NCBI GenBank assembly: GCA_033664045.1
Contig: GCA_033664045.1_3674.1
Reading direction: 5' to 3' (one strand)
Source of the DNA: a phage
DNA: 64,000 bases
Position numbers and translations under genes: made by a program
Shown here: one piece after another, positions 32,195-42,746 of the stretch
How the letters are laid out: each line of letters starts with the position of its first letter
How positions within the stretch are numbered: the first letter of the stretch is position 1
The notes under the pieces: model-generated
What the model was told of the DNA's origin: nothing
The model's database searches: none
Seen by the model: only the letters and a program-made list of their open reading frames with translations

Positions 32195-32224
32195 AAAAAG
32201 GGGCCAAACGGCCCCTTTCTTTTT
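32195..32224. terminator. bidirectional rho-independent terminator at the strand switch
   Basis: aaaaaggggccAAACggcccctttcttttt; A-run upstream and T-run downstream, between convergent stops at 32182 and 32229. Confidence 0.75.
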
Positions 32225-32228
32225 ATAA

Positions 32229-32429
32229 TTAGTAATATTCCCAACACGACCCATCTTCAGACGGCTGGACACGTTTACCTTCATGATCGACATAGGTGTA
32301 ACCACAGCCTTCACAGATAACAGGGGCCGCATAACCTTCCTTCCACTGGTCTTCTGTGATCAGTCCTTTCAGATCTCCGCAGTCACGACCAAACAACTCT
32401 TCAGAACAATCTTTGCAAAAATCAGCCAT
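32229..32429 (-). CDS. C4 zinc-ribbon protein (66 aa)
   Basis: CKDC...CEGC pairs; RBS GAGGA. Confidence 0.45.
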   Translation of the reverse strand: MADFCKDCSEELFGRDCGDLKGLITEDQWKEGYAAPVICEGCGYTYVDHEGKRVQPSEDGSCWEYY

Positions 32430-32432
32430 TTC

Positions 32433-32840
32433 TCAGTCCTCGTATTTAACAAATTTTTCTACAGATCCACCAAGCACAGCTTGTTGTTTGATGGCACTTT
32501 CTTCATCATAGTGGATAGACTTATGTTCCGTACCTCCAAACTTACCTGTGTGGAAGGTGTGCACCCAAATCTCTTTAGGAAGGGATTTATTCTCTTCCTC
32601 CACCAACTCCCACATACCCCACAGGTGGTCTGTAATATCTTTGATGAAATATCCCTCACCAAGATTTGTATTCACACTATAGGCCGATTCGTGATCTCCG
32701 CAAATATAACGGAAGGCAGTGTACTCTTTTCCTGGTGTGAAGTGGGTGTCCATTAGTATAGCTGTTAGAGAATAAGGATCTCGAAAACCTAAAAATTTTA
32801 GTTTGACAATTTCAACCTTTATATCTGCAAGACTATCCAT
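32433..32840 (-). CDS. hypothetical protein (135 aa)
   Basis: RBS GGAGGTG; lies downstream of the internal minus-strand promoter. Confidence 0.45.
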   Translation of the reverse strand: MDSLADIKVEIVKLKFLGFRDPYSLTAILMDTHFTPGKEYTAFRYICGDHESAYSVNTNLGEGYFIKDITDHLWGMWELVEEENKSLPKEIWVHTFHTGKFGGTEHKSIHYDEESAIKQQAVLGGSVEKFVKYED

Positions 32841-32876
32841 ACTGCACCTCCGGCTTGTTTGTTATCGATATGGAGA

Positions 32877-32905
32877 ATAATACTTCGCGAGGTGGAAGAT
32901 GTCAA
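32877..32905 (-). promoter_or_regulatory. near-consensus sigma70 promoter TTGACA-N17-TATTAT (minus strand)
   Basis: Plus-strand tgtcaa at about 32900-32905 and ataata at about 32877-32882; about 35 nt upstream of the start at 32840. Confidence 0.55.
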
Positions 32906-33009
32906 GATTAATTTTAAGCAATTTGAGAGGGTATTTTATTCAGGGGGGTAATCACATAGGGTATGGCAATTTATGAAGGCACAGGCCTCTTTTGAGGCCT
33001 TAAAATCGA

Positions 33010-33390
33010 TTATGACACTTTGACGTAGCGCTCTGACATAGCTGGAAAGCCAAAAGCAGTACCTATACTACCATATGCTACCCACCATTGAAGTTCATCG
33101 TGACACCATTTTCCGATCAGAAAGGTGCTGGGGTAGCGGGTCAGTATTTTGGCATAAGCTTTAGGGTCTGCATCCTCTGGGATAATGATACTTGGAACAT
33201 CTTTGTTATGACCACAGCAGCAGTTTAGAGTTTTCAATCCTGCCGCCCATAGACTCATGATAGGCTTAGCCATGCACTTATCAAGGCATACACGTTTTTT
33301 GCCGTCACGGAGCTTTTTAGGCACATCAACGATAACATTTTGATGCTTGGCACCTTTCACTTTCCAATTATAGGATTTACACTTGCACAT
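33010..33390 (-). CDS. Cys-rich hypothetical protein (126 aa)
   Basis: Multiple Cys clusters (CKCK, NCCCGH); RBS GGAGA. Confidence 0.45.
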   Translation of the reverse strand: MCKCKSYNWKVKGAKHQNVIVDVPKKLRDGKKRVCLDKCMAKPIMSLWAAGLKTLNCCCGHNKDVPSIIIPEDADPKAYAKILTRYPSTFLIGKWCHDELQWWVAYGSIGTAFGFPAMSERYVKVS

Positions 33391-33420
33391 TCAATCAGTC
33401 TCCATCTATAAAGCAATACT

Positions 33421-33591
33421 TTACTTAAAATCTTTGTCACCTATTACAATTGCACGAATCCACTCATTGTGATGTTCAATGGCGGTAAGGTGTAACATAA
33501 TGTAGTGATTGTCATTACTAAACACGGTGCGGTAAGCTTTAGCAGCACCATGATATAACTTCCACATCAGGTAATGATATCTTCGCCTCAT
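33421..33591 (-). CDS. small hypothetical protein (56 aa), translationally coupled
   Basis: Not in the ORF track (below its size cut-off); ATG overlaps the upstream stop as ATGA at 33588-33591. Confidence 0.3.
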   Translation of the reverse strand: MRRRYHYLMWKLYHGAAKAYRTVFSNDNHYIMLHLTAIEHHNEWIRAIVIGDKDFK

Positions 33592-34067
33592 GGCTCTTGC
33601 TCCGGTTCAGGGTCTGGGTAATCTTCAATAATAAAAGGCCATCCATTACGCTTTGCTTCAGACTTATACTTAATCTCCTTCATTGCAAACTCTAATTGAT
33701 TCTTAGCAGGAATGCAAGCCGGAGAATCATCCACCCAGATGTCGGGGTAGATATCGAACTGTGCCAAGTAGGCTGCCTTCTGCACACCTCCTGTATAGAA
33801 CACACCTACGTCCAACTCCTTGCGCCAATACTCAATGTCTACATTGTCTTGAGTGATGAATCGGAAAGTCACAAGGTATGGTGTCCACCCTTCCTTTTTC
33901 AAGTCCCTAATCAGGCGGGAGAAGATGAAAGGGCTCGCATTAAATGTCCCATCAAAGTCAATGGCAATGATGTGTGTTCCGTGGCGAGTCTCATATGGAT
34001 TGCTTGTGGTAAGATTGCTGTAGTTAAAAGGAACTTCTTCCCCGCAGTAGCTGTAGTCCATATTCAC
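33588..34067 (-). CDS. HAD-superfamily phosphatase/nucleotidase-like protein
   Basis: Motif I IAIDFDGTF and motif IV-like WVDDSP; start overlaps the upstream stop (ATGA). Confidence 0.5.
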   Translation of the reverse strand: MNMDYSYCGEEVPFNYSNLTTSNPYETRHGTHIIAIDFDGTFNASPFIFSRLIRDLKKEGWTPYLVTFRFITQDNVDIEYWRKELDVGVFYTGGVQKAAYLAQFDIYPDIWVDDSPACIPAKNQLEFAMKEIKYKSEAKRNGWPFIIEDYPDPEPEQEP

Positions 34068-34339
34068 ACCTTCTCGTTGATAAATTTACGGGCGGTTTGG
34101 TGAGTTGTTTCTGCTGTCTTCAGAATGATATTAATTTTATTGTCAAGATCATTCATCTCAGCAGTTAATTCAGGAATCTCTCCGGCATGCATGGTGAAAT
34201 CATACATAGACATACTCAGGATCTCATTGATTCGGCGGTTGCATTCTGCAGCACGCTGGTTCATTTTCCAAGCTAACACCAGAGCCTCTTGCGTAGCCTC
34301 CAGTGCAAAGTCTAATACGTCAGCTTCTTCTTTCGTCAT
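34064..34339 (-). CDS. hypothetical helical protein (91 aa)
   Basis: ORF with upstream RBS; no motif. Confidence 0.45.
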   Translation of the reverse strand: MTKEEADVLDFALEATQEALVLAWKMNQRAAECNRRINEILSMSMYDFTMHAGEIPELTAEMNDLDNKINIILKTAETTHQTARKFINEKV

Positions 34340-34394
34340 CTCAGTTTCTCTTGTTGTATTGTTGATAGGTGCATGAACACCTTATATCTCACTT

Positions 34395-34961
34395 TTATTC
34401 AAACTGTAATAGCAAGTCCACCACCGCACTAGGCCTGTCAACAAATTCCCCAGGCCCACATGCCCATAGAGGGTATCCATCAACATACCGCCATATCCAA
34501 CCTGCAGTGTGGAGCTCAAGCAGGGCAGTGCCGTCCTTACTGTCAACTACTCTTTCCCACAGTGTTGGGCAGCGAAGCTTGAGAATAGGATCACCACCCT
34601 TATACCCATCCATGTAGATACCCATTGCAAAGTTCAGCATCATCTTTTTGTGCACTGATCTCTTATTGAGGGTGCTCATCACTTCTTCTTTGTGAATGTT
34701 TGTAAGCTTCTCCCTGGCTACCCGCAGATCGTTGCAACCATTGTTCAGCAGATCTTCCAGGCACTTGATCCGAAGGTCGTGAATGTCTTTGTCGTGTACC
34801 GTTGGCACAGGGTCGTAGCGGTATAGCACTGTTGATACAAGGTTGCTAGGGTGTGGGTCTGACAGCAACCCATAGCCCCAATACTCTTCTGTATCTGAAA
34901 GGACAAGACACCCAATGTCTCTGTCAAGCTTTCCTGTGTTGTAAGCCACATTGACAGCCAT
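34395..34961 (-). CDS. hypothetical protein (188 aa)
   Basis: RBS GGAG; no motif. Confidence 0.45.
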   Translation of the reverse strand: MAVNVAYNTGKLDRDIGCLVLSDTEEYWGYGLLSDPHPSNLVSTVLYRYDPVPTVHDKDIHDLRIKCLEDLLNNGCNDLRVAREKLTNIHKEEVMSTLNKRSVHKKMMLNFAMGIYMDGYKGGDPILKLRCPTLWERVVDSKDGTALLELHTAGWIWRYVDGYPLWACGPGEFVDRPSAVVDLLLQFE

Positions 34962-34963
34962 GA

Positions 34964-35209
34964 CTATAGCTCCACTAGCAAAGTGCTTTCAAAGTGCCTC
35001 TCATGCAGACCGTTGTAAGGCACCACTTCCACAACGCCATCACGGACATATGGGGCCATCATGGTGGCATAATCTCCAAACGGGTTGGTATTGTCACTAA
35101 CCACAACCACCTTCTGTCCTTCCTTGGCAGAGTGCCAAATAGACCTGCACTTCATCAGGTGTTCGAGAGCTCCGGGTAAAATTTTGTTACGTTCTTTACG
35201 GGTCTTCAT
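34964..35209 (-). CDS. hypothetical protein (81 aa)
   Basis: ATGA overlap with the upstream gene. Confidence 0.4.
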   Translation of the reverse strand: MKTRKERNKILPGALEHLMKCRSIWHSAKEGQKVVVVSDNTNPFGDYATMMAPYVRDGVVEVVPYNGLHERHFESTLLVEL

Positions 35210-35655
35210 AACAGGTATAGCTCCTTATGAAAGTAGTCTTTTAATTTCTCACTGAGAAACTTCTTGATACCTTCCTCTAAAGTGTTTTCGATGTAGTCCA
35301 GCTTAACTGCTTCGATGGACATATCATAGATCGCCAGCTCTAAGCTGTCAAGTCCCATCATAGCATGAACCATAAGATTTTCATCTTCAGATACATTCAA
35401 GGGACTTCCTATAACATCTGTAGGTAGGATAGTCTCCCAATTATTCTGGGGAGTAGTTCTCCCGCCATCCACTTTCCGGCGCAGTTCGAAGGTGTTCTTA
35501 GTGTAGAACACTTCATAAGAAACGATACGACTGTCACTCTCATAATAAACGAAGTTCAGGTAGGAGCCTAGCCGCAGTCGGCAAACTTCTACCCCAAACC
35601 ATTGTTTCTTATAGGAATTCAGGCTAATGCTGTCGCATTCACGTTTGCTCAACAC
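35206..35655 (-). CDS. hypothetical protein (149 aa)
   Basis: GTG start preceded by AGGAGA. Confidence 0.45.
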   Translation of the reverse strand: MLSKRECDSISLNSYKKQWFGVEVCRLRLGSYLNFVYYESDSRIVSYEVFYTKNTFELRRKVDGGRTTPQNNWETILPTDVIGSPLNVSEDENLMVHAMMGLDSLELAIYDMSIEAVKLDYIENTLEEGIKKFLSEKLKDYFHKELYLL

Positions 35656-35671
35656 GGCTCTCTCCTTTTTG

Positions 35672-35905
35672 TTAATCTTCGTAAATCAGGATTTCTGCTT
35701 TAGGTTTTCGTGCTTTCAAGTCCAGCTCTATCCAGTGCACCATAGCTGTTTCAAGAAAAACAGCTTGGATGCATCCGTCCTCAGCGTGCCCCACCAACAT
35801 AACAAGATCTTCACATTCGTCATCTGCATCACGAACATACAGAATCTCCCCAGATTCAAAGTCTTTCACAACCTGATTGCTGGATAATTTACGAATTTTT
35901 GCCAT
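35672..35905 (-). CDS. small hypothetical protein (77 aa), possible member of a small-paralog family
   Basis: RBS GAGGG; weak resemblance to the two upstream small ORFs. Confidence 0.4.
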   Translation of the reverse strand: MAKIRKLSSNQVVKDFESGEILYVRDADDECEDLVMLVGHAEDGCIQAVFLETAMVHWIELDLKARKPKAEILIYED

Positions 35906-35906
35906 A

Positions 35907-36170
35907 TCAGAAACCCTCTAAAAAGCTCTTGTAGAAAATAATTTCAGTATCAACACCAGTCACGATCTTGTCGTTCCTGATTTCATCGGTAAGATAGGTG
36001 TCAAAACGCAGAACCTGTGTGGTATTGTCGCACATCCACTCAGCTGTGACCATGGCGAAAATCTTAGCATCTTCATTATCTGGTGTAAATGTTACCACCT
36101 CACCACATTTAAATTTTTCGATAGGTTGCGTGTTAGCTTTCGGTTCTGCAATAGTGATTTTCGTGGTCAT
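35907..36170 (-). CDS. small hypothetical protein (87 aa)
   Basis: TAATG overlap with the upstream gene. Confidence 0.4.
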   Translation of the reverse strand: MTTKITIAEPKANTQPIEKFKCGEVVTFTPDNEDAKIFAMVTAEWMCDNTTQVLRFDTYLTDEIRNDKIVTGVDTEIIFYKSFLEGF

Positions 36171-36427
36171 TACTCTTCCTCCATAGTTTCACCAAATACT
36201 TCGATACGAGCATCGAGCTCGGTTGCTTTCAGCTCCCCAACAAAGTATTTTAGTTCTTTCTCGTCCAGATCGTAAGCCCACACACAAGAAGAACATGCAG
36301 ATTTCACAATCAGCAGCGTAGATACACGACCTGACTCTGTGATCATGCTCACAATGGTTCCCACAGGGAACGTGTTGATAGCTTTTTTAACTGGGCGTTC
36401 AGCTTTAATTACTACCTCTGTTGCCAT
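36170..36427 (-). CDS. small hypothetical protein (85 aa)
   Basis: Track ORF trimmed to Met4, which has AGAGAGGATG upstream. Confidence 0.4.
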   Translation of the reverse strand: MATEVVIKAERPVKKAINTFPVGTIVSMITESGRVSTLLIVKSACSSCVWAYDLDEKELKYFVGELKATELDARIEVFGETMEEE

Positions 36428-36442
36428 AAATAACATCCTCTC

Positions 36443-37903
36443 TTACTTAGCGTACTCGATTAATTCCACAGTTTTCCCAAAGCTAGGGATATAATTTTTA
36501 TTATACCCTTCGGTGAGAACCCATAAAGTATCGTACTTTTTCCACTTGTTGTCAACAGCCTTTTGTTCAAAGTTATGCTCAAAGTATAGGTCGGTCAGGA
36601 CGATGACATCTTTTGCATTTGGTATGTTGGCATCCAGATACTCGAACACGCAAGCAGCTGTTGTGCCCCATGTTGAGTGGACCTCATAGTTGATCATCTC
36701 GTCTATGTTGCCGCGAGTATATACTTTAACCTCTCCGACTTCAGTTGACCAACAGAACATTGTAACCTTAAACTCTTTATACAGATTGCACAATCCGGTG
36801 ATTTCATTGAACATTTTCTTTAAAGTTCTTTGAGAGATCGAGCCAGAAACGTCTAAAGCTACCACAATATCTATGGTGTTTTCCGGATTACGACCAGGAA
36901 CAATAACGTGCTGGTTCTTGTTTATAGCCCCAACTTTTCGCATTGTGCTGGTCAAAGACCCAGATCGGCGACCAGGTTTTCTGTAGGTCAGTTCAGCCTT
37001 TCGTTTAGACAACATGCGTTGCTTAATGATGTCTATATAGTTGATTACAGGCTTGCCTCTGTTCTTGACAAACTCACGCACCGCCTCAGGGCAACGGCCT
37101 CCGGACGCTTGCATTGCTGCTTCCAGCATGTCACCAGAGTCTTGCATGGCCTGATCTTTATCAGATTGGCTGATTACAGGTTGTGGCTGATCATACCCCA
37201 TAGCCTTTCCAAGATCATCACTGGTACCACCGTTCCCACTCATGTGATCATCTGTTTGTCGCTTATCTCCTTGAGAGTTCTCACCTTTACCGCTCTTATT
37301 TTTACCGTTATTCTGATCTCTTTGCTTATCAAGAACTGCATAGACGTTCTCAGCAATCCATCCATGAAACCTCATGTCGCAGTAGCAGCTGGCTAAGAAA
37401 CCAAAAGGCTTACCTTTCACGAACGTAGTGCTTTTCCCCTTCGGGAAGAAAACACAAGGAGGCTTGCTAAAGTCAACCACAAGTCCTGTGTTGATAACGT
37501 GATCACAAGCAATATTGAACAGTTCCGGCTCAAAGCTTTTACCACGGACCAGGTGATCACAGATAATATGCCCCACCTCATGCGACAGAAGAAAGGCCAC
37601 CTCTTTCACAGATTTTGGGGAATAGAAAACTTCAGCCATCTCAAACTGCTCGTTAGTTAGAGAGGCCTTAAGAATAGCCTTGCGTTCATCAGCCAACCCC
37701 ATAATGAACTCAGGACTGTAATAGATACGTTTATGGTCGGTTGCCATGGTAGAGCACCATGTGTGGTTCTCTACGAACTGCAACCCTGACAGTAGTGTGC
37801 CATAAAACGGCAGCTTTTCAAGAAGATACATACGTGCAGCCTGCAACATTCTCAGGGCATCATCTTTCTGTGAGGCAATGATTTCTGAACTTCTGCTATC
37901 CAT
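36443..37903 (-). CDS. vWA-domain protein with N-terminal zincin-like metallopeptidase domain (DUF2201-like; CobT-like)
   Basis: HExxH in LLSHEVGHIICDH; MIDAS-type DxSxS in IVVALDVSGSIS; track start trimmed to the ATG after the upstream terminator hairpin. Confidence 0.7.
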   Translation of the reverse strand: MDSRSSEIIASQKDDALRMLQAARMYLLEKLPFYGTLLSGLQFVENHTWCSTMATDHKRIYYSPEFIMGLADERKAILKASLTNEQFEMAEVFYSPKSVKEVAFLLSHEVGHIICDHLVRGKSFEPELFNIACDHVINTGLVVDFSKPPCVFFPKGKSTTFVKGKPFGFLASCYCDMRFHGWIAENVYAVLDKQRDQNNGKNKSGKGENSQGDKRQTDDHMSGNGGTSDDLGKAMGYDQPQPVISQSDKDQAMQDSGDMLEAAMQASGGRCPEAVREFVKNRGKPVINYIDIIKQRMLSKRKAELTYRKPGRRSGSLTSTMRKVGAINKNQHVIVPGRNPENTIDIVVALDVSGSISQRTLKKMFNEITGLCNLYKEFKVTMFCWSTEVGEVKVYTRGNIDEMINYEVHSTWGTTAACVFEYLDANIPNAKDVIVLTDLYFEHNFEQKAVDNKWKKYDTLWVLTEGYNKNYIPSFGKTVELIEYAK

Positions 37904-37904
37904 T

Positions 37905-37931
37905 AAAACTCCAGAAGGGGCCAATGGCCCC
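37905..37931 (-). terminator. intergenic hairpin terminator (minus strand)
   Basis: ggggccaATggcccc palindrome directly after the stop at 37937-37939, followed on the minus strand by UUCUGGAGUUUU. Confidence 0.45.
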
Positions 37932-37936
37932 TGTCA

Positions 37937-38926
37937 TTATTTAACGTGTTTGAAAATACCTGCCAACTCGGTCATTGTCATGCGGGTGGTCTTCATAAGG
38001 TCTGTCATAGCCTTCTCCATAATTGGAGATACTACCATAAAGTTACCCTTGGTGAAACCTTTATTCCAGTCGGTCACTAATAGTGGTTTAAGTCCGACCC
38101 CGAGACGCTCACCAGTTAAAGCACAACATTTTCGAATGTACGTGCTCTTAAATTGACTGAATGACAGATCAACTTTCATACCTGCATCGTAGAACGTCTG
38201 ACAATAGAAAGTGTAAGCTTTGGCAATCTCAACATCGTCAGGCAGTGCAGGAACCTCTTCTGTGAGCTCTTCTTCGTCCCCTTGAGGCTCTTTTTCCTCT
38301 TCGTAAGCCTGTTGCGCCACTTCTTTAATCTCCTCTGCTGCAGGCTCGTTTACAATGTCAGAAATGTGCTTGTTGGCTCCACGGTTAGCCATGAAGTTTT
38401 TAAAATCCTGCATTGGTGACATATCTTCCTCCCATTCTTCGTCAAAGAGTGCCAGTTTATCCTCTTCCGTCCCATATTGCAAGATGAAATCTTCAAAAGT
38501 GTAATCACCTTTCAATTTCTCCATGCGCTCTTCGCTCAGGTGGAGCATCATCTGCTGGACAATTTTTCGATCAGTTTTGTCTTTAATCAAGATTGCGGTC
38601 TTTTTATCTACCAGGCAGTCTTTCAGAGAGTTACACCTCAATCCTACCACACAACAGTTATCAATTGCGTAAGGACCTTCATCATCTATCCGCTCCAGAG
38701 ATGGGTAGAAAGGATTCCCCAGCCCGTTTTCATCTGTGTGCATGTCGAAAGGTATAAGGGTATAGTCGCATACCCCCTCTCCTAAAAGTTTTTTACCAAA
38801 TAGGAGGTATTCTTCCCATGACAGGTTGAACTCTATATCTCGTTTCCGTGCATTATTTTGTTTGCGTCTGTATTTTTTGAGCAGGCGCTCTAACTCTTCT
38901 GGTGTATAATATTTTTCAAGATTCAT
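37937..38926 (-). CDS. protein with two degenerate HNH-like (His-Me finger) motifs
   Basis: SLERIDDEGPYAIDNCCVVGLRCNSLK and LVTDWNKGFTKGNFMVVS resemble the C..CG...DRID..GY..NV...CN..K pattern; start placed at Met66 so the gene clears the divergent promoter region. Confidence 0.35.
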   Translation of the reverse strand: MNLEKYYTPEELERLLKKYRRKQNNARKRDIEFNLSWEEYLLFGKKLLGEGVCDYTLIPFDMHTDENGLGNPFYPSLERIDDEGPYAIDNCCVVGLRCNSLKDCLVDKKTAILIKDKTDRKIVQQMMLHLSEERMEKLKGDYTFEDFILQYGTEEDKLALFDEEWEEDMSPMQDFKNFMANRGANKHISDIVNEPAAEEIKEVAQQAYEEEKEPQGDEEELTEEVPALPDDVEIAKAYTFYCQTFYDAGMKVDLSFSQFKSTYIRKCCALTGERLGVGLKPLLVTDWNKGFTKGNFMVVSPIMEKAMTDLMKTTRMTMTELAGIFKHVK

Positions 38927-38957: not shown

Positions 38958-38986
38958 ATCTTATCAAGTGCCTCGACAGATGTCAA
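38958..38986 (-). promoter_or_regulatory. sigma70-like promoter TTGACA-N17-TAAGAT with TGn (minus strand)
   Basis: Plus-strand tgtcaa at 38981-38986 and atctta at 38958-38963; drives the minus-strand cluster. Confidence 0.55.
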
Positions 38987-38999
38987 CCTCAAAAACGTG

Positions 39000-39028
39000 T
39001 TGACTTTACTATAAATCCACGATATAGT
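39000..39028 (+). promoter_or_regulatory. sigma70-like promoter TTGACT-N17-TATAGT
   Basis: Hexamers at 39000-39005 and 39023-39028; RBS AGGAG and ATG at 39069. Confidence 0.6.
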
Positions 39029-39068: not shown

Positions 39069-39968
39069 ATGGCAAATCTTAACAGCTTTAGCACTCGGTG
39101 GAAACAAGATATCACAACCAATCTCTCAGCAGGTGATATCCTTTCTGCAATTTACGAGGCTTTGGATGATAAAGCTACTTCAAAATCGGTTTGTACCAAC
39201 CCGCTAATTCCTGTAGTAATGAAGGTTATTGAGCGTAGGCTGGTATCCGGATCTGATAAGTGGACATATCTGGATAATGGAGGCCACACTTACTCCAACG
39301 GCTATGTCGATATAAAAGTAGAATATGCGGTATCATATCGCCGGAGCGGCTCTGTAACTTTCAACTTCTCTGGTGGTTTCCGATCTCTGGCAACTTCACC
39401 TTTTGTTTCCTCAGAGGAGAAGTTTGAACTTCCGTTCCTTTGGATGATGGCTAACGCGACAGGCAAAACCCCTGTAAGCATTCGCGTAAAATACAACTAC
39501 AATGGATCTAGTAAGATCTATGCCGAGAGTGTCTCAGCAAGTTTTTATTTTGTGATGGGGGATGGAATCCTCAAACATATAAAGATGTGTGATATGCATG
39601 ATGTTATAAATGAAGTGACTGATAAGAATGTTCTGGTGAAGGATCTCAACAATTTTTATACACCGGGAGACTATTACGTCAACCGTCCACTGTGCATCTT
39701 TAATGCTGCACACCCTTTAGGTGAGTATTTGATTGCCAATAGTGATATTGCCAATAACCGCTTCGAGGTATCAAGAGTACAGAATGAGGTGTTGACATCT
39801 TGCAAGAGCGGTGATAAGTTTACCGAAGAAGAGATGGGTGTTTTAGAGATGATGGGATATAAGTGTAGCCTTTGGGTAGATGAGGTGTTTAATGACGGCA
39901 TCTATGGACAGGATATTTACCCGTTAAAGAAGTACACTGATTCCAGTTTAATTTACGCGGAGATTTGA
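39069..39968 (+). CDS. hypothetical early protein (about 300 aa)
   Basis: Track ORF trimmed to Met15, which has AGGAG upstream and lies downstream of the promoter. Confidence 0.5.
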   Translation: MANLNSFSTRWKQDITTNLSAGDILSAIYEALDDKATSKSVCTNPLIPVVMKVIERRLVSGSDKWTYLDNGGHTYSNGYVDIKVEYAVSYRRSGSVTFNFSGGFRSLATSPFVSSEEKFELPFLWMMANATGKTPVSIRVKYNYNGSSKIYAESVSASFYFVMGDGILKHIKMCDMHDVINEVTDKNVLVKDLNNFYTPGDYYVNRPLCIFNAAHPLGEYLIANSDIANNRFEVSRVQNEVLTSCKSGDKFTEEEMGVLEMMGYKCSLWVDEVFNDGIYGQDIYPLKKYTDSSLIYAEI

Positions 39969-40872: not shown

Positions 40873-41253
40873 ATGGCCCGGTGGAAGACAACAGTTGACC
40901 TGCATGATCAGTGGTTAGGACGCATCACTGAAGACGGGAAACTAGCGGAGTGGGACAATAAGCATGTTAGCGAGTTGGCAAGCATTGTGGCTGGCAAGTT
41001 ACGCTCCAAGTTCCCTGAACAACTGAATCCTGATAGTTCAAAGTTCGATCCTGAGTTGGAGGATGTTGTATACTACTTCGATACCGTGGATGACTACGAT
41101 GCGTGGCTTGCAGCACGGGAGCTTTACCCACAAGGCTCTGCTATGCGCCAGATGGAAGAAGATTATCCTCCGTGCGAGCAATTTAATAGCGCAATGACTT
41201 GCCTCTACGATTGGGCAGATAAGAACCTTGTCTGGATTCGGACTGCATTCTAG
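40873..41253 (+). CDS. acidic hypothetical protein
   Basis: RBS GAGGTG; Asp/Glu-rich. Confidence 0.45.
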   Translation: MARWKTTVDLHDQWLGRITEDGKLAEWDNKHVSELASIVAGKLRSKFPEQLNPDSSKFDPELEDVVYYFDTVDDYDAWLAARELYPQGSAMRQMEEDYPPCEQFNSAMTCLYDWADKNLVWIRTAF

Positions 41254-41268: not shown

Positions 41269-41562
41269 ATGCCACTTAAAAGAGTAATGAACATGTTATA
41301 CCAGAAACACGAACTTTGTGCAGAAAAAGAGTTAAATTTTGACAAAGTTATCCACAGATATTGTTATGGAAAAACCGGAAGACAACTAAGAAGATGCACT
41401 CCAGCATTCTTTCACCCCAGCAGGCGGCTAAGTCCTGAAGAGGCGACAGCAGAAAGGGTTGCATACAACTGGGAAGTTGTGTACGATATTGACAGATCCG
41501 ATGTGACATCTGTTTTGGAAAACTTTGAAAACACTTACACACAAGTAGAGGACTTTTACTAA
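41269..41562 (+). CDS. hypothetical protein
   Basis: Track GTG start trimmed to the ATG at 41269. Confidence 0.4.
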   Translation: MPLKRVMNMLYQKHELCAEKELNFDKVIHRYCYGKTGRQLRRCTPAFFHPSRRLSPEEATAERVAYNWEVVYDIDRSDVTSVLENFENTYTQVEDFY

Positions 41563-42746
41563 TGTCAAGAAACGTATTTGAAAGTGGTCAAATCACTGTC
41601 CGTGAGTTGCCAGCTATCATTCAGTTCGCCCAGCGTCATAACCGATCTGTCCTGATTTTAGGACCAATGGGCGTGGGTAAGAGCCAGGTGATGAAGCAGA
41701 TTGCAGATAATATGTTCGGTGAGCGAGATGACAACCTGGTTGACGTGCGACTGTCAGATAAAGATCCTGCTGACTTATCTGGGCTACCTATCCCTGTAGA
41801 AGCGGATGGAACTACACGTACAGTGTTTGCAATTCCAGAATTTTGGCCTGCAGATCCGGACTGGAGCGGAATTATCTTTCTAGATGAGCTTACCCATGCA
41901 GATAATTACCTGCAGAAGGTTGCAATGCAAATTATGCTCGACCACAAGTGCGGCACTTATGCATTCCCTAAGGGCTCTGTTTTTGTAGCTGCAGGTAACC
42001 GTTCTACAGATGGTGCTGTTCTTTCAGCGCTTGAAGCACCTCTGGCTAACCGCTTTATCATTGTAGAGGTTACAAGCAATGCAGAGGTGTTTATTGAGGA
42101 CTATGCATTCCTCAACGGGGTGCACTCCTCTGTAATTGGGTATTTGAAAAGAGTTCCATCAGCTATCGATAATTATGAGGCTATGGCTGAGATTAATTGT
42201 CCATCTTTTGCCACACCGCGATCTTGGGTTGCTGCATCTGATATCTTGCACGATTTTGACAGCGGTATTATTTCTGACGCTATGGCCCGTGTTCTTCTGC
42301 AAGGTGCTATTGGTCACACTGCAGCGGTAGAGATCTGGACTTACCACACCAAAAAACGCAACTTACCGGAAATCGGTCGGATTATGGCAGGAGGTTGCAA
42401 AGAATACGTAGGTCCTAAACAGCCAGACATCTTGTGGATTCTTGGATCTGAAGGTTGTATCGCTATTCGTAATATGATGGAAAATGCAAGTATCTCCGAC
42501 GAAGATCTTGTTAGCTGTGTGGCAAACTTCCTCGATTTCCTTTGGGAAAATTTCAAGGACGAGAACCGAGATTTTGTATTCTCAGTCTTTATGGCGATGA
42601 TGAAACCTAATGCCTTAGGAAATGCCTTGCTTATCGGTAAAGGGCGTGACAAGATTGTTGCTCAGCTGATCAAAGCATACCCAAACCTGATGAAGATTGT
42701 AAAAGAGTTTGGTGAAGAGTTTAGCGCCATTTTGGCTAAAGCTTGA
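41562..42746 (+). CDS. MoxR-like AAA+ ATPase (AAA_5/CobS-like)
   Basis: Walker A GPMGVGKS, Walker B IIFLDELTHAD, sensor region AAGNRSTDG. Confidence 0.7.
   Translation: MSRNVFESGQITVRELPAIIQFAQRHNRSVLILGPMGVGKSQVMKQIADNMFGERDDNLVDVRLSDKDPADLSGLPIPVEADGTTRTVFAIPEFWPADPDWSGIIFLDELTHADNYLQKVAMQIMLDHKCGTYAFPKGSVFVAAGNRSTDGAVLSALEAPLANRFIIVEVTSNAEVFIEDYAFLNGVHSSVIGYLKRVPSAIDNYEAMAEINCPSFATPRSWVAASDILHDFDSGIISDAMARVLLQGAIGHTAAVEIWTYHTKKRNLPEIGRIMAGGCKEYVGPKQPDILWILGSEGCIAIRNMMENASISDEDLVSCVANFLDFLWENFKDENRDFVFSVFMAMMKPNALGNALLIGKGRDKIVAQLIKAYPNLMKIVKEFGEEFSAILAKA

Follow-up and report, generated by a model that had tools for sequence, protein, structure and literature searches.

The question raised by positions 32229-38926 of the phage DNA analysed here (a stretch of 64,000 nt, the window) is what a run of genes on the opposite strand represents, and whether it is an insertion devoted to early interaction with the host. 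An earlier note, made from the sequence alone, took it to be a cluster of 13 coupled genes on the opposite strand between the late and replication blocks. The strand assignment is borne out, since this is the sole minus-strand gene run in the 64-kb window, with all of its long ORFs on the minus strand and the sign of the GC skew flipping exactly over 32-40 kb. The count is not 13 but 14 ORFs (g1 to g14), a number matched by the annotation of three related GenBank records. The position is also as described; specifically, a gene for a 1875-aa tail-fibre protein lies to the left and is convergent to the block, and the right arm passes from an AAA+ ATPase and a cell-wall hydrolase through rIIA/rIIB and helicases to DNA polymerase. 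That the genes are mostly joined by overlaps was an overstatement, as only 4 of the 13 junctions overlap (TAATG, ATGA, GTGA, ATGA), the others being four gaps of 1-6 nt and five of 16-169 nt. Counting overlaps, 8 of 13 junctions are at or below 6 nt, and "tightly packed" is a fair description. The products are mostly small, acidic and soluble.

Sequence comparison identifies the whole 64,000-nt window as Vequintavirus, an rV5-like E. coli phage, and the minus-strand block as rV5 genes 11-26, a transcription unit already published in 2013 and thus not new (Kropinski et al. 2013, Virol J 10:76, PMC3606486). Gene set and order are identical to rV5, nucleotide identity to rV5-group genomes is 93-96% and nothing essential differs; the rV5 annotation has 16 ORFs, two of which are omitted in later annotations, against 14 here, and the window is distinguished by a single g12-type gene and a g2 in its 135-aa form. 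Promoters P011 and P025 and the bidirectional terminator t026/t027 are likewise common to both. In that paper gp11 is already given as a homologue of Srd, and gp12 as a protein with DUF2201_N (PMC3606486).

The block is bordered by a divergent sigma-70-type promoter pair at 38.96-39.03 kb and a bidirectional terminator at 32195-32220. The predicted promoter of the unit (38958..38986, minus strand), found by consensus scan, reads TTGACA-17-TAAGAT and has an extended -10 (TG); it is the equivalent of rV5 P011, which is entered in Table S4 of that study (PMC3606486), and its -35 and extended -10 are retained in 8/8 genomes compared. Back to back with it stands the predicted equivalent of P010 (39000-39028, plus strand). 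The near-consensus internal promoter of the earlier note is confirmed at 32877..32905 (minus strand; P025 equivalent) as a predicted TTGACA-17-TATTAT site with 11/12 consensus matches, within the 169-nt gap between g3 and g2; a TTGACA-type site occupies this position in 6/8 genomes, with the spacer and -10 varying along with the cargo. Promoter-like sites over the whole region number 25 against 16.9 +/- 5.3 expected, an enrichment that is not significant, and only the two intergenic near-consensus sites carry weight. The predicted intrinsic terminator (32195..32220; t026/t027, entered in the rV5 table, PMC3606486) has an 11-bp stem with a U-run on both strands (-18.8 kcal/mol, z -3.6) and is common to the block and the convergent tail-fibre gene. 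Two further structures lie on the minus strand: a G+C-rich palindromic hairpin in the g14/g13 gap (37916..37932; -15.2 kcal/mol, not significant at z -1.7), which may be a processing/stability element or terminate in part, the record of phage Murica listing a "terminator" feature with its vWA gene match, and a stem-loop without a U-tract directly 3' of the g3 stop codon (32983..33000; -13.4 kcal/mol, z -3.0), which 0/200 shuffles fold equally well. The rV5-type late motif (TGGTAAAATA) occurs 0 times inside the block and four times in the neighbouring tail block.

Four genes, g14, g13, g9 and g5, are conserved across the Vequintavirinae, with homologous arms in seven other genera. The first gene of the unit, g14 (37937..38926, minus strand; 329 aa), encodes a Srd-like protein and is the one in which two degenerate HNH-like motifs had been noticed. 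Its N-terminal degenerate HNH-like domain (CDYT at 53-56, ERID at 78-81) is joined by a disordered acidic linker (about 167-226) to a second, more degenerate copy (CALT at 268-271, VTDWNKGF at 284-291), the two domains aligning at E 0.0027 in hhalign. The N-terminal domain is homologous to residues 4-133 of T4 Srd (for g14, BLASTP 1e-7; hhalign 97%, E 1.2e-10), and BLASTP also aligns the C-terminal domain with that part of Srd, at 0.001. The AF2 model (pLDDT 79.6) has as its top Foldseek matches almost exclusively HNH nucleases, all weak (E 0.03-0.3), and PHROG matches are phrog_3118, phrog_1400 and phrog_4592. The HNH-derived domains have lost the catalytic histidine. T4 Srd is a stimulator of RNase E that has historically been labelled "anti-sigma" or a sigma-70 decoy, and the labels attached to g14 in databases ("anti-sigma factor", "anti-termination", "HNH endonuclease") are not experimentally based. 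The genes of both proteins lie with other non-late genes, where host-takeover functions are located. Counting against this reading of g14, the similarity is limited to the N-terminal domain of g14 and the overall architectures differ; Srd has 248 aa, and the second degenerate domain and the acidic linker are features of g14. T4 Srd binds RNase E and hastens host mRNA decay (Qi 2015, as cited in PMC4980113 and PMC13232886). By homology, g14 would have the catalytic half of RNase E as its binding partner and would speed the decay of host mRNA.

The second gene, g13 (36443..37903, minus strand; 486 aa), combines a zincin-like metallopeptidase domain (HEVGH, 108-112) with a vWA domain (MIDAS motif DVSGS, 351-355), and both Pfam models, DUF2201_N (5.7e-28, 98.7 bits) and DUF2201 (3.5e-11, 43.7 bits), score above their cut-offs, which confirms the vWA/zincin protein of the earlier note. 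Homologues occur in 634 phage records, N4-like and jumbo phages among them. A DUF2201-type protein is labelled "N4 gp37-like protein" in the record of Pseudomonas phage LIT1. The presumed partner of g13 is the AAA+ ATPase of the opposite arm (41562..42746, plus strand; phrog_1297 "ATPase", 1.4e-110), which is conserved in 7/7 other genera and adjoins the vWA gene in the same direction in 3/7 of them, as it does in N4-like and jumbo phages. Because all its matches to Pfam AAA families, AAA_5 included, fall below the cut-offs, the "MoxR" tag that it takes from relatives is an inherited label. The nearest known systems are the MoxR-vWA couples of chaperone and co-chaperone (RavA-ViaA, CoxD-CoxE) and the DUF2201 "metallopeptidase + VWA" proteins found beside AAA+ ATPases, with which g13 shares both DUF2201 domains, the HExxH and MIDAS motifs and an AAA+ ATPase as conserved genomic partner across phage families. 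Unlike in those couples, the two genes here are on opposite strands with about 3.6 kb between them, and a third conserved, Vequintavirinae-specific protein, g9 (35206..35655, minus strand; 149 aa), accompanies g13, its gene being directly downstream of the vWA gene in seven other genera. By analogy, g13 may be the substrate-binding co-factor of the ATPase. For g9, a six-strand beta meander with three helices is confidently predicted; no analogue of this predicted structure was found in the PDB, so that its role is a guess. It accompanies g13 throughout and is a candidate adaptor or substrate.

The fourth conserved gene, g5 (33588..34067, minus strand; 159 aa, 154-157 aa in related records), has homologues in 332 phage records and is a HAD-like putative phosphatase. 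It shares with HAD-superfamily phosphatases the four signature motifs in canonical order (I DFDGT 37-41, II VTFR 66-69, III GGVQK 93-97, IV WVDD 111-114), the key residues (D, D, T / T, R / K / D, D) being invariant in nine diverse phage homologues; it differs in being very small, with a core of about 115 aa and no evident cap domain. The HAD phosphatase of the earlier note is a reading from motifs only, with no significant match in Pfam, NCBIfam or the PDB, where HAD matches are sub-threshold only. It may act on nucleotides or phospho-metabolites.

These genes could also be read as a housekeeping module of the middle phase, serving replication, nucleotide metabolism or the maturation of proteins, and not as a host-interaction locus. 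The AAA+/vWA-zincin couple would then mature a phage complex, with the HAD enzyme working in nucleotide metabolism. In an N4-like phage the ATPase and vWA/zincin pair directly precedes a DNA helicase, near rIIA, and therefore a middle or housekeeping role fits this pair equally well; the two adjoin again in a jumbo phage, the ATPase arm of the window continues into rIIA/B, helicases and polymerase, and MoxR-vWA couples have a known role as chaperones in maturation (PMC7159879). Against this, the first gene resembles Srd, a modulator of host RNA decay, and 10/14 genes are either polymorphic or confined to the genus, as housekeeping genes seldom are, and we regard this account of the core as rather unlikely.

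The ten other genes appear, by homology searches, to be genus-specific small proteins. Profile searches agree with the earlier view that most members have no recognisable function, as 10/14 proteins receive no Pfam/NCBIfam assignment and their PHROGs are labelled "unknown function". Between the vWA gene and g9 lies an array of genes for small acidic proteins (35672..36436, minus strand), made up of g12 (36170-36436, 88 aa), g11 (35907-36170, 87 aa) and g10 (35672-35905, 77 aa), with homologues in Vequintavirus only and none in the seven other genera. The g12 family and g11 are probable paralogues (hhalign 74%, E 2.8e-5 over 75 columns); the relation of g10 to them, at E about 0.04, is only suggestive. 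Copy number varies, EduardKellenberger and DrSchubert having two g12 paralogues of 39% identity. The others, also on the minus strand, are g8 (34964-35209, 81 aa) and g7 (34395-34961, 188 aa), both genus-specific; g6 (34064..34339, 91 aa), acidic, helical/coiled-coil-like and genus-specific, with sub-threshold alanine-zipper and spectrin matches only and no cross-genus homologues found; g4 (33421-33591, 56 aa), basic and rich in His; and g3 (33010-33390, 126 aa), basic, the Cys-rich protein already noticed, with eight Cys including CCC at 57-59. Neither g4 nor g3 has a family assignment.

At the 3' end, behind the predicted internal promoter, is a mosaic accessory cassette (32229..32840, minus strand) of g2 (32433-32840, 135 aa), in which two modules are fused, and g1 (32229-32429, 66 aa), whose sequence shows a CxxC...CxxC pattern (CKDC...CEGC). 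DrSchubert, 241Ecol014PP and FV3 have other genes in the g2 slot. Homologues of g1 with 64-77% identity occur in Felixounavirus and T5-like phages, a total of 836 records, T5.062 of T5 being 65% identical.

Two slots of the block thus vary between phages, and one could suppose, as the earlier note implied, that the whole was recently acquired and is a moron or anti-defence island placed between the late modules and those of replication. The two hypervariable slots, the g1 and g2 modules common to unrelated phage families, the predicted promoters and terminator of its own and the small, mostly acidic products speak for this. We hold this to be improbable. The block is collinear in essentially every Vequintavirus record, being found at 90-96% identity in 114/122 matching phage records (the others mostly fragments), and none of the 122 is a Vequintavirus that lacks the whole block at an intact tail-fibre/ATPase junction. 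Its G+C (0.43-0.45) is in line with that of its surroundings, g14, g13, g9 and g5 are kept in homologous arms of other genera, and when ChuuTotoro and Certrevirus are set beside 4MG and rV5, one ancestral inversion of the [Srd...ATPase] segment is seen to explain the strand change. The word "inserted" is to be dropped: the block is a conserved unit, one arm of a divergent promoter pair, in which acquired cargo would be limited to the g2-g1 cassette and the array g12-g10 at most. Its gene structure, signals, conservation, homologies and polymorphism are shown directly.

That some members are virion or assembly proteins is very improbable, for the "tail protein" label of g9 in RefSeq (several records) and PHROGs (phrog_6790) has no traceable experimental basis, rV5 gp11-26 have no mass-spectrometry evidence in virions (PMC3606486), the block lacks a late-type promoter and is transcribed convergently to the tail genes, even if, as cited in PMC7159879, a MoxR-vWA pair drives tail development in the archaeal virus ATV.

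An early or middle role in host interaction is plausible from sequence features. The extended -10 sigma-70-type promoter and the absence of a late motif inside are consistent with it, as are the Srd-like first gene, the small acidic soluble products and the two polymorphic slots. The promoter type, which together with position was taken earlier as an early mark, is by itself no such mark, because rV5 sigma-70-like promoters occur genome-wide and also precede late genes (PMC3606486). Neither transcriptomic nor proteomic data on timing were found in the literature for any Vequintavirus, and we infer the early/middle timing, as we do every biochemical activity of the products. The small-gene clusters of virulent phages, early or accessory, as in the T4 and T5 early regions, resemble the block in their many short packed ORFs without assigned function, host-type promoters and mosaic content, and differ in that the block also holds large conserved genes and is only presumed to be early.

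We therefore think it fairly probable that the block is the rV5-type transcription unit 11-26 built in three layers: a conserved core, genus-specific proteins and a mosaic cassette. Unmodified host RNA polymerase would read it from the sigma-70 promoter arm toward the shared bidirectional terminator. The genus-specific layer, which includes the tandemly duplicated, copy-number-variable family of g12/g11 and perhaps g10, may supply host- or defence-directed binders, mostly acidic and soluble. The 3' g2-g1 cassette, with its own predicted promoter, has a content that is swapped between phages and is common to T5-, FelixO1- and T1-like phages.

Using megablast, the minus-strand gene block at 32229-38926 was matched by 122 phage records, in 114 of which a single alignment, 90-96% identical, spanned 80% or more of the query. 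The matching records are almost all Escherichia phages of the genus Vequintavirus (rV5-like myoviruses), which makes the window part of a Vequintavirus genome. The rV5 genome paper proposed four transcription units, with "genes 11-26", the counterpart of the block, among them; its tables give P011, P020, P025 and t026/t027, with sequences that agree with the sites in the window, it names gp11 as an Srd homologue and gp12 as a DUF2201_N protein, and for none of gp11-26 does it give mass-spectrometry evidence as a virion protein (Kropinski et al., 2013; PMC3606486). Overall the block holds nothing new: it is a rediscovery of a transcription unit already in print, strongly conserved in a genus that has been sampled well. 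Sixteen GenBank records (MG0656xx) titled "Campylobacter phage", with Campylobacter jejuni as host, share ~95% identity with E. coli Vequintaviruses across the block; they are probably mislabelled or derived from contaminating coliphages.

As the earlier note had described, all genes of the block lie on the opposite strand, in an unbroken run of minus-strand ORFs from 38926 to 32229 that is the sole such run in the 64 kb; GC skew is positive across the window except at 32-40 kb. The count of 13 genes given there needs correction, since we find 14 ORFs, numbered downwards from g14, the first transcribed, to g1, as in three related records that annotate 14 minus-strand CDSs here, between the large tail-fibre protein and the divergent arm. 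The genes are tightly packed, but it was too much to call them mostly overlapping, as overlaps occur at only 4 of the 13 junctions (TAATG, ATGA, GTGA and ATGA); at four others neighbouring genes stand 1-6 nt apart, and the remaining five have spacings of 16, 30, 33, 55 and 169 nt. Rfam and tRNA scans of the block region gave no matches.

In other genera, phmmer found homologues only of g14, g13, g9 and g5, together with those of two genes on the other arm of the divergent promoter pair, namely a conserved AAA+ ATPase gene (41562-42746, +) and a 126-amino acid acidic ORF upstream of it (40873-41253, +). The ATPase is separated from the Srd-like gene (g14), the vWA gene (g13) and g9 in Vequinta-, Seuna-, Mydo-, Henuna- and Avunavirus, where it occupies one arm and they occupy the other; in the window, the ATPase gene lies on the opposite strand to g13 and ~3.6 kb from it. 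In ChuuTotoro the Srd-like gene is on the opposite arm. The ATPase and vWA genes of this phage run in the same direction, adjacent or nearly so, and the same is true of Certrevirus, W70, an N4-like phage and a jumbo phage. We infer that a single inversion of the [Srd ... ATPase] segment, including its divergent promoters, would interconvert the two arrangements. The minus-strand block would then be an ancestral rearrangement, and the earlier description of it as inserted is wrong. A comparative check for polymorphism of the block, which had also been recommended, bore out variation at two slots (g12 and g2), but within Vequintavirus the block is collinear.

Two sigma-70 promoters are predicted, both intergenic, both with 17-nt spacers and both kept in relatives. 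The unit promoter at 38986-38958 (-), TTGACA-17-(TG)-TAAGAT (10/12 plus TG), is paired, back to back, with a promoter on the + strand (39000-39028), while the internal promoter noticed from sequence was recovered at 32905-32877, TTGACA-17-TATTAT (11/12), inside the 169-nt gap. As a class, promoter-like sites are not enriched in the region (25 observed vs 16.9 +/- 5.3 expected), and the rV5 authors report that sigma-70-like promoters occur all over the genome (PMC3606486). A further site at 35351-35323 (TTGACA-17-TATGAT, 11/12) was not counted as a promoter because it is located in conserved coding sequence, that of g9; it is identical or nearly so in 8/8 genomes compared, a conservation that is inseparable from coding constraint. 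The unit ends at a bidirectional intrinsic terminator (32195-32220) with an 11-bp stem, U-runs on both strands and a z of -3.6. Two intergenic gaps also hold G+C-rich hairpins without a U-tract, at 37916-37932 (after g14) and 32983-33000 (after g3), the latter stronger than 200/200 shuffles (z -3.0), and these could act as attenuators or in RNA processing or stability. No rV5-type late motif (TGGTAAAATA) occurs in the block, and four copies, close variants included, lie on the + strand in the tail-gene block (4726, 11551, 17062 and 23393). Early or middle expression would fit the absence of the late motif, the promoters of sigma-70 type and the Srd-like nature of the first gene; we found no expression data for any Vequintavirus in the published literature.

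The best name for the first gene of the unit, g14 (37937-38926), is Srd-like. By BLASTP its N-terminal domain matches T4 Srd at 1e-7 and its C-terminal domain matches the same stretch of Srd at 0.001, and profile comparison with hhalign gives 97% and E 1.2e-10 over Srd residues 4-143; nothing in g14 matches the C-terminal half of Srd, and the domain architecture differs from that of Srd. The protein comprises two domain copies and an acidic disordered linker, and its AlphaFold model (pLDDT 79.6) places this linker between two folded domains, with a beta-beta-alpha element predicted in each. The best Foldseek matches are almost all HNH nucleases (PacI at prob 1.0 and TMt 0.53, McrA, Cas9 HNH), although they are weak, with none at E <= 0.001, and the N- and C-terminal domains match each other in the expected register (hhalign, E 0.0027). 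This HNH tendency, the beta-beta-alpha element in both domains and their mutual match uphold the earlier claim of two degenerate HNH-like motifs. Invariant in the family alignment are C-D-Y-T and E-R-I-D ... N ... N, and on our own reading, made without alignment to an HNH profile, the arginine of E-R-I-D occupies the expected place of the HNH catalytic histidine (D-H). With no catalytic histidine as read, and no CxxC pairs in g14, the protein is probably not a nuclease. According to Qi (2015), cited in PMC4980113 and PMC13232886, T4 Srd binds RNase E at its catalytic (N-terminal) half and speeds up the decay of host mRNA. These properties are known for T4 Srd only, to which g14 is likened by sequence homology. 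For Srd, the label "anti-sigma" is historical. The "anti-sigma" and "anti-termination" labels of g14 itself have been propagated in databases and look unfounded.

The second gene, g13 (36443-37903), is indeed the vWA/zincin protein that had been claimed, with both DUF2201 domains above their cut-offs: DUF2201_N (PF13203) at 5.7e-28 and 98.7 bits against a gathering score of 23.2, and the VWA-like domain DUF2201 (PF09967) at 3.5e-11 and 43.7 bits against 26.4. An HExxH zinc-binding motif (HEVGH, 108-112) and a MIDAS motif DxSxS (DVSGS, 351-355) are present, and this family's PHROG label (phrog_1314), "HNH endonuclease", is evidently wrong. Phage records with homologues number 634, N4-like and jumbo phages among them. 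The presumed partner of g13, the ATPase, is an AAA+ P-loop protein for which "MoxR" is an inherited label. All its Pfam AAA matches are below cut-off (AAA_5 at 16.7 bits, against 22), its homologues in relatives score no better, and its PDB matches are confined to the Walker-A region of Clp ATPases. The 126-amino acid ORF is kept beside the ATPase in Seunavirus, Mydovirus and Avunavirus, and may belong to an ATPase/vWA module.

The small gene g9 (35206-35655) has a confident predicted fold without a solved analogue, and is always beside the vWA gene in the Vequintavirinae. By iterated profile search, its homologue is the ORF directly after the vWA gene in 7/7 other Vequintavirinae loci fetched (Seunavirus 4MG, Mydovirus VIK251, Henunavirus, Avunavirus, Certrevirus, W70 and ChuuTotoro). 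Homologue searches returned, among the best 120 matches listed, almost only proteins at least 96% identical, the more distant matches ranking lower, and a whole-library profile search gave only 10 cluster representatives. The labels "tail protein" (PHROG) and "holin" (one record) look unfounded for g9, which has no hydrophobic segment and for whose counterpart there is no virion evidence in rV5. We offer as speculation, and consider improbable, that the ATPase, the zincin-vWA protein g13 and g9 form a three-part phage chaperone-protease, in which g9 would be an adaptor or pro-substrate aiming the complex at a host target, the copy-number-variable g12, g11 and possibly g10 would be diversifying counter-defence binders, and the whole would be the phage counterpart of bacterial ternary MoxR-vWA conflict systems.

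A CBASS operon, EcCdnG, restricts Bas48-59, which are Vequintaviruses; its restriction of Bas51 persists when loop mutations prevent it from sensing the T4 prohead protease, and the paper does not name the trigger in Vequintaviruses (PMC12991175). We dropped the idea that the zincin g13 is the protease sensed by CBASS in Bas48-59, as that paper concerns prohead proteases and does not mention g13.

The protein g5 (33588-34067) had been called a HAD phosphatase, a claim that stands as to the motifs but that is without statistical support for membership from profiles or structures. Motifs I (DxDxT; D15, D17, T19), II (S/T; T45, with R47), III (K75) and IV (DD; D91, D92) fit and occur in order, and these residues are invariant in an alignment of 9 homologues of 25-41% identity; homologues are found in 332 phage records, Kuravirus, Otagovirus and Zobellviridae included. 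The single sequence has no Pfam, NCBIfam or PDB match, the best HAD matches of the family profile are sub-threshold (E 0.26-1.3), and so are the Pfam matches of individual family members (Hydrolase 0.01, Acid_phosphat_B 0.09, HAD_2 0.17). Profile matches of the family to designed PPR proteins dominated the PDB results and are a spurious repeat match.

Profile searches placed ten genes (g1-g4, g6-g8 and g10-g12) in no family other than PHROGs of "unknown function", in keeping with the earlier note's remark that most members lack a recognisable function; Pfam, NCBIfam, PADLOC and PDB single-sequence searches of the small ORFs likewise gave nothing usable. Their products, including those of g4 (33421-33591), g6 (34064-34339), g7 (34395-34961) and g8 (34964-35209), are all soluble and most are acidic, while g3 (33010-33390) is basic and, with 8 cysteines, accounts for the Cys-rich protein that had been reported. 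Between the vWA gene and g9 lies the array of g12 (36170-36436), g11 (35907-36170) and g10 (35672-35905), found in Vequintavirus only when set against the other genera compared. The g12 slot holds a single gene in the window and FV3, whereas the loci of DrSchubert and EduardKellenberger (L021:4447-4973, L023:4237-4763) have a tandem pair of paralogues there with 39% identity to g12. Pairwise BLAST among the small proteins showed no paralogy. Comparison of g12 and g11 by hhalign gave 74% and E 2.8e-5 over 75 columns, only when diverged g12 copies were in the profile, which makes g11 a probable further paralogue of g12; for g10 the match (E ~0.04) is no more than suggestive.

The 3' end of the unit is a mosaic cassette. 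When the window was compared with three loci of related phages (L021, L022 and L024), the g2 slot (32433-32840), directly behind the internal promoter, was found to hold one of three contents: the 135-amino acid g2; a 72-amino acid protein corresponding to the N-terminal half of g2 (51% identical) with a 109-amino acid ORF; or a g2-like gene with ORFs of 109 and 167 amino acids. A TTGACA-type -35 of the promoter is kept in 6 of the 8 genomes compared, and its spacer and -10 vary along with the cargo. The last gene, g1 (32229-32429; 66 amino acids), has homologues of 64-77% identity in Felixounavirus, T5-like and some Pseudomonas and Stenotrophomonas phages (836 records), and its counterpart in T5, T5.062, is within the T5 tRNA cluster. 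It has two CxxC pairs, CKDC (5-8) and CEGC (39-42), which make it a candidate zinc ribbon; the homologues were compared by overall identity. That so tiny a protein is conserved across phage families suggests that its host target is conserved as well. A paper on daunorubicin that we considered is about T5-like pre-early genes and is unrelated to the block.

Taken together, the block is best read as an early or middle operon in three layers, the timing and all activities being our inferences. A conserved core would comprise a modulator of RNase E resembling Srd, a zincin-vWA protein serving the AAA+ ATPase as co-factor, its companion g9 and an enzyme with HAD motifs; a second layer would consist of genus-specific small proteins, diversifying paralogues among them; and the third would be the mosaic cassette with its separate promoter. 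Several propagated labels are flagged here as unsupported: that of the vWA/zincin protein ("HNH endonuclease"), those of g9 ("tail protein", "holin") and those of g14 ("anti-sigma", "anti-termination"). On the other arm, the first + strand gene (39069-39968) is labelled "1-3 fucosyltransferase", which looks unfounded; it has no Pfam match.

Vequintaviruses are common candidates for therapy and biocontrol, and we know of no account of how they take over their host. The value of the block is as a short list for experiments, with four leads: the Srd-like first gene, the trio of ATPase, vWA-zincin protein and g9 that is common to several phage families, the 66-amino acid g1, and the two polymorphic slots.
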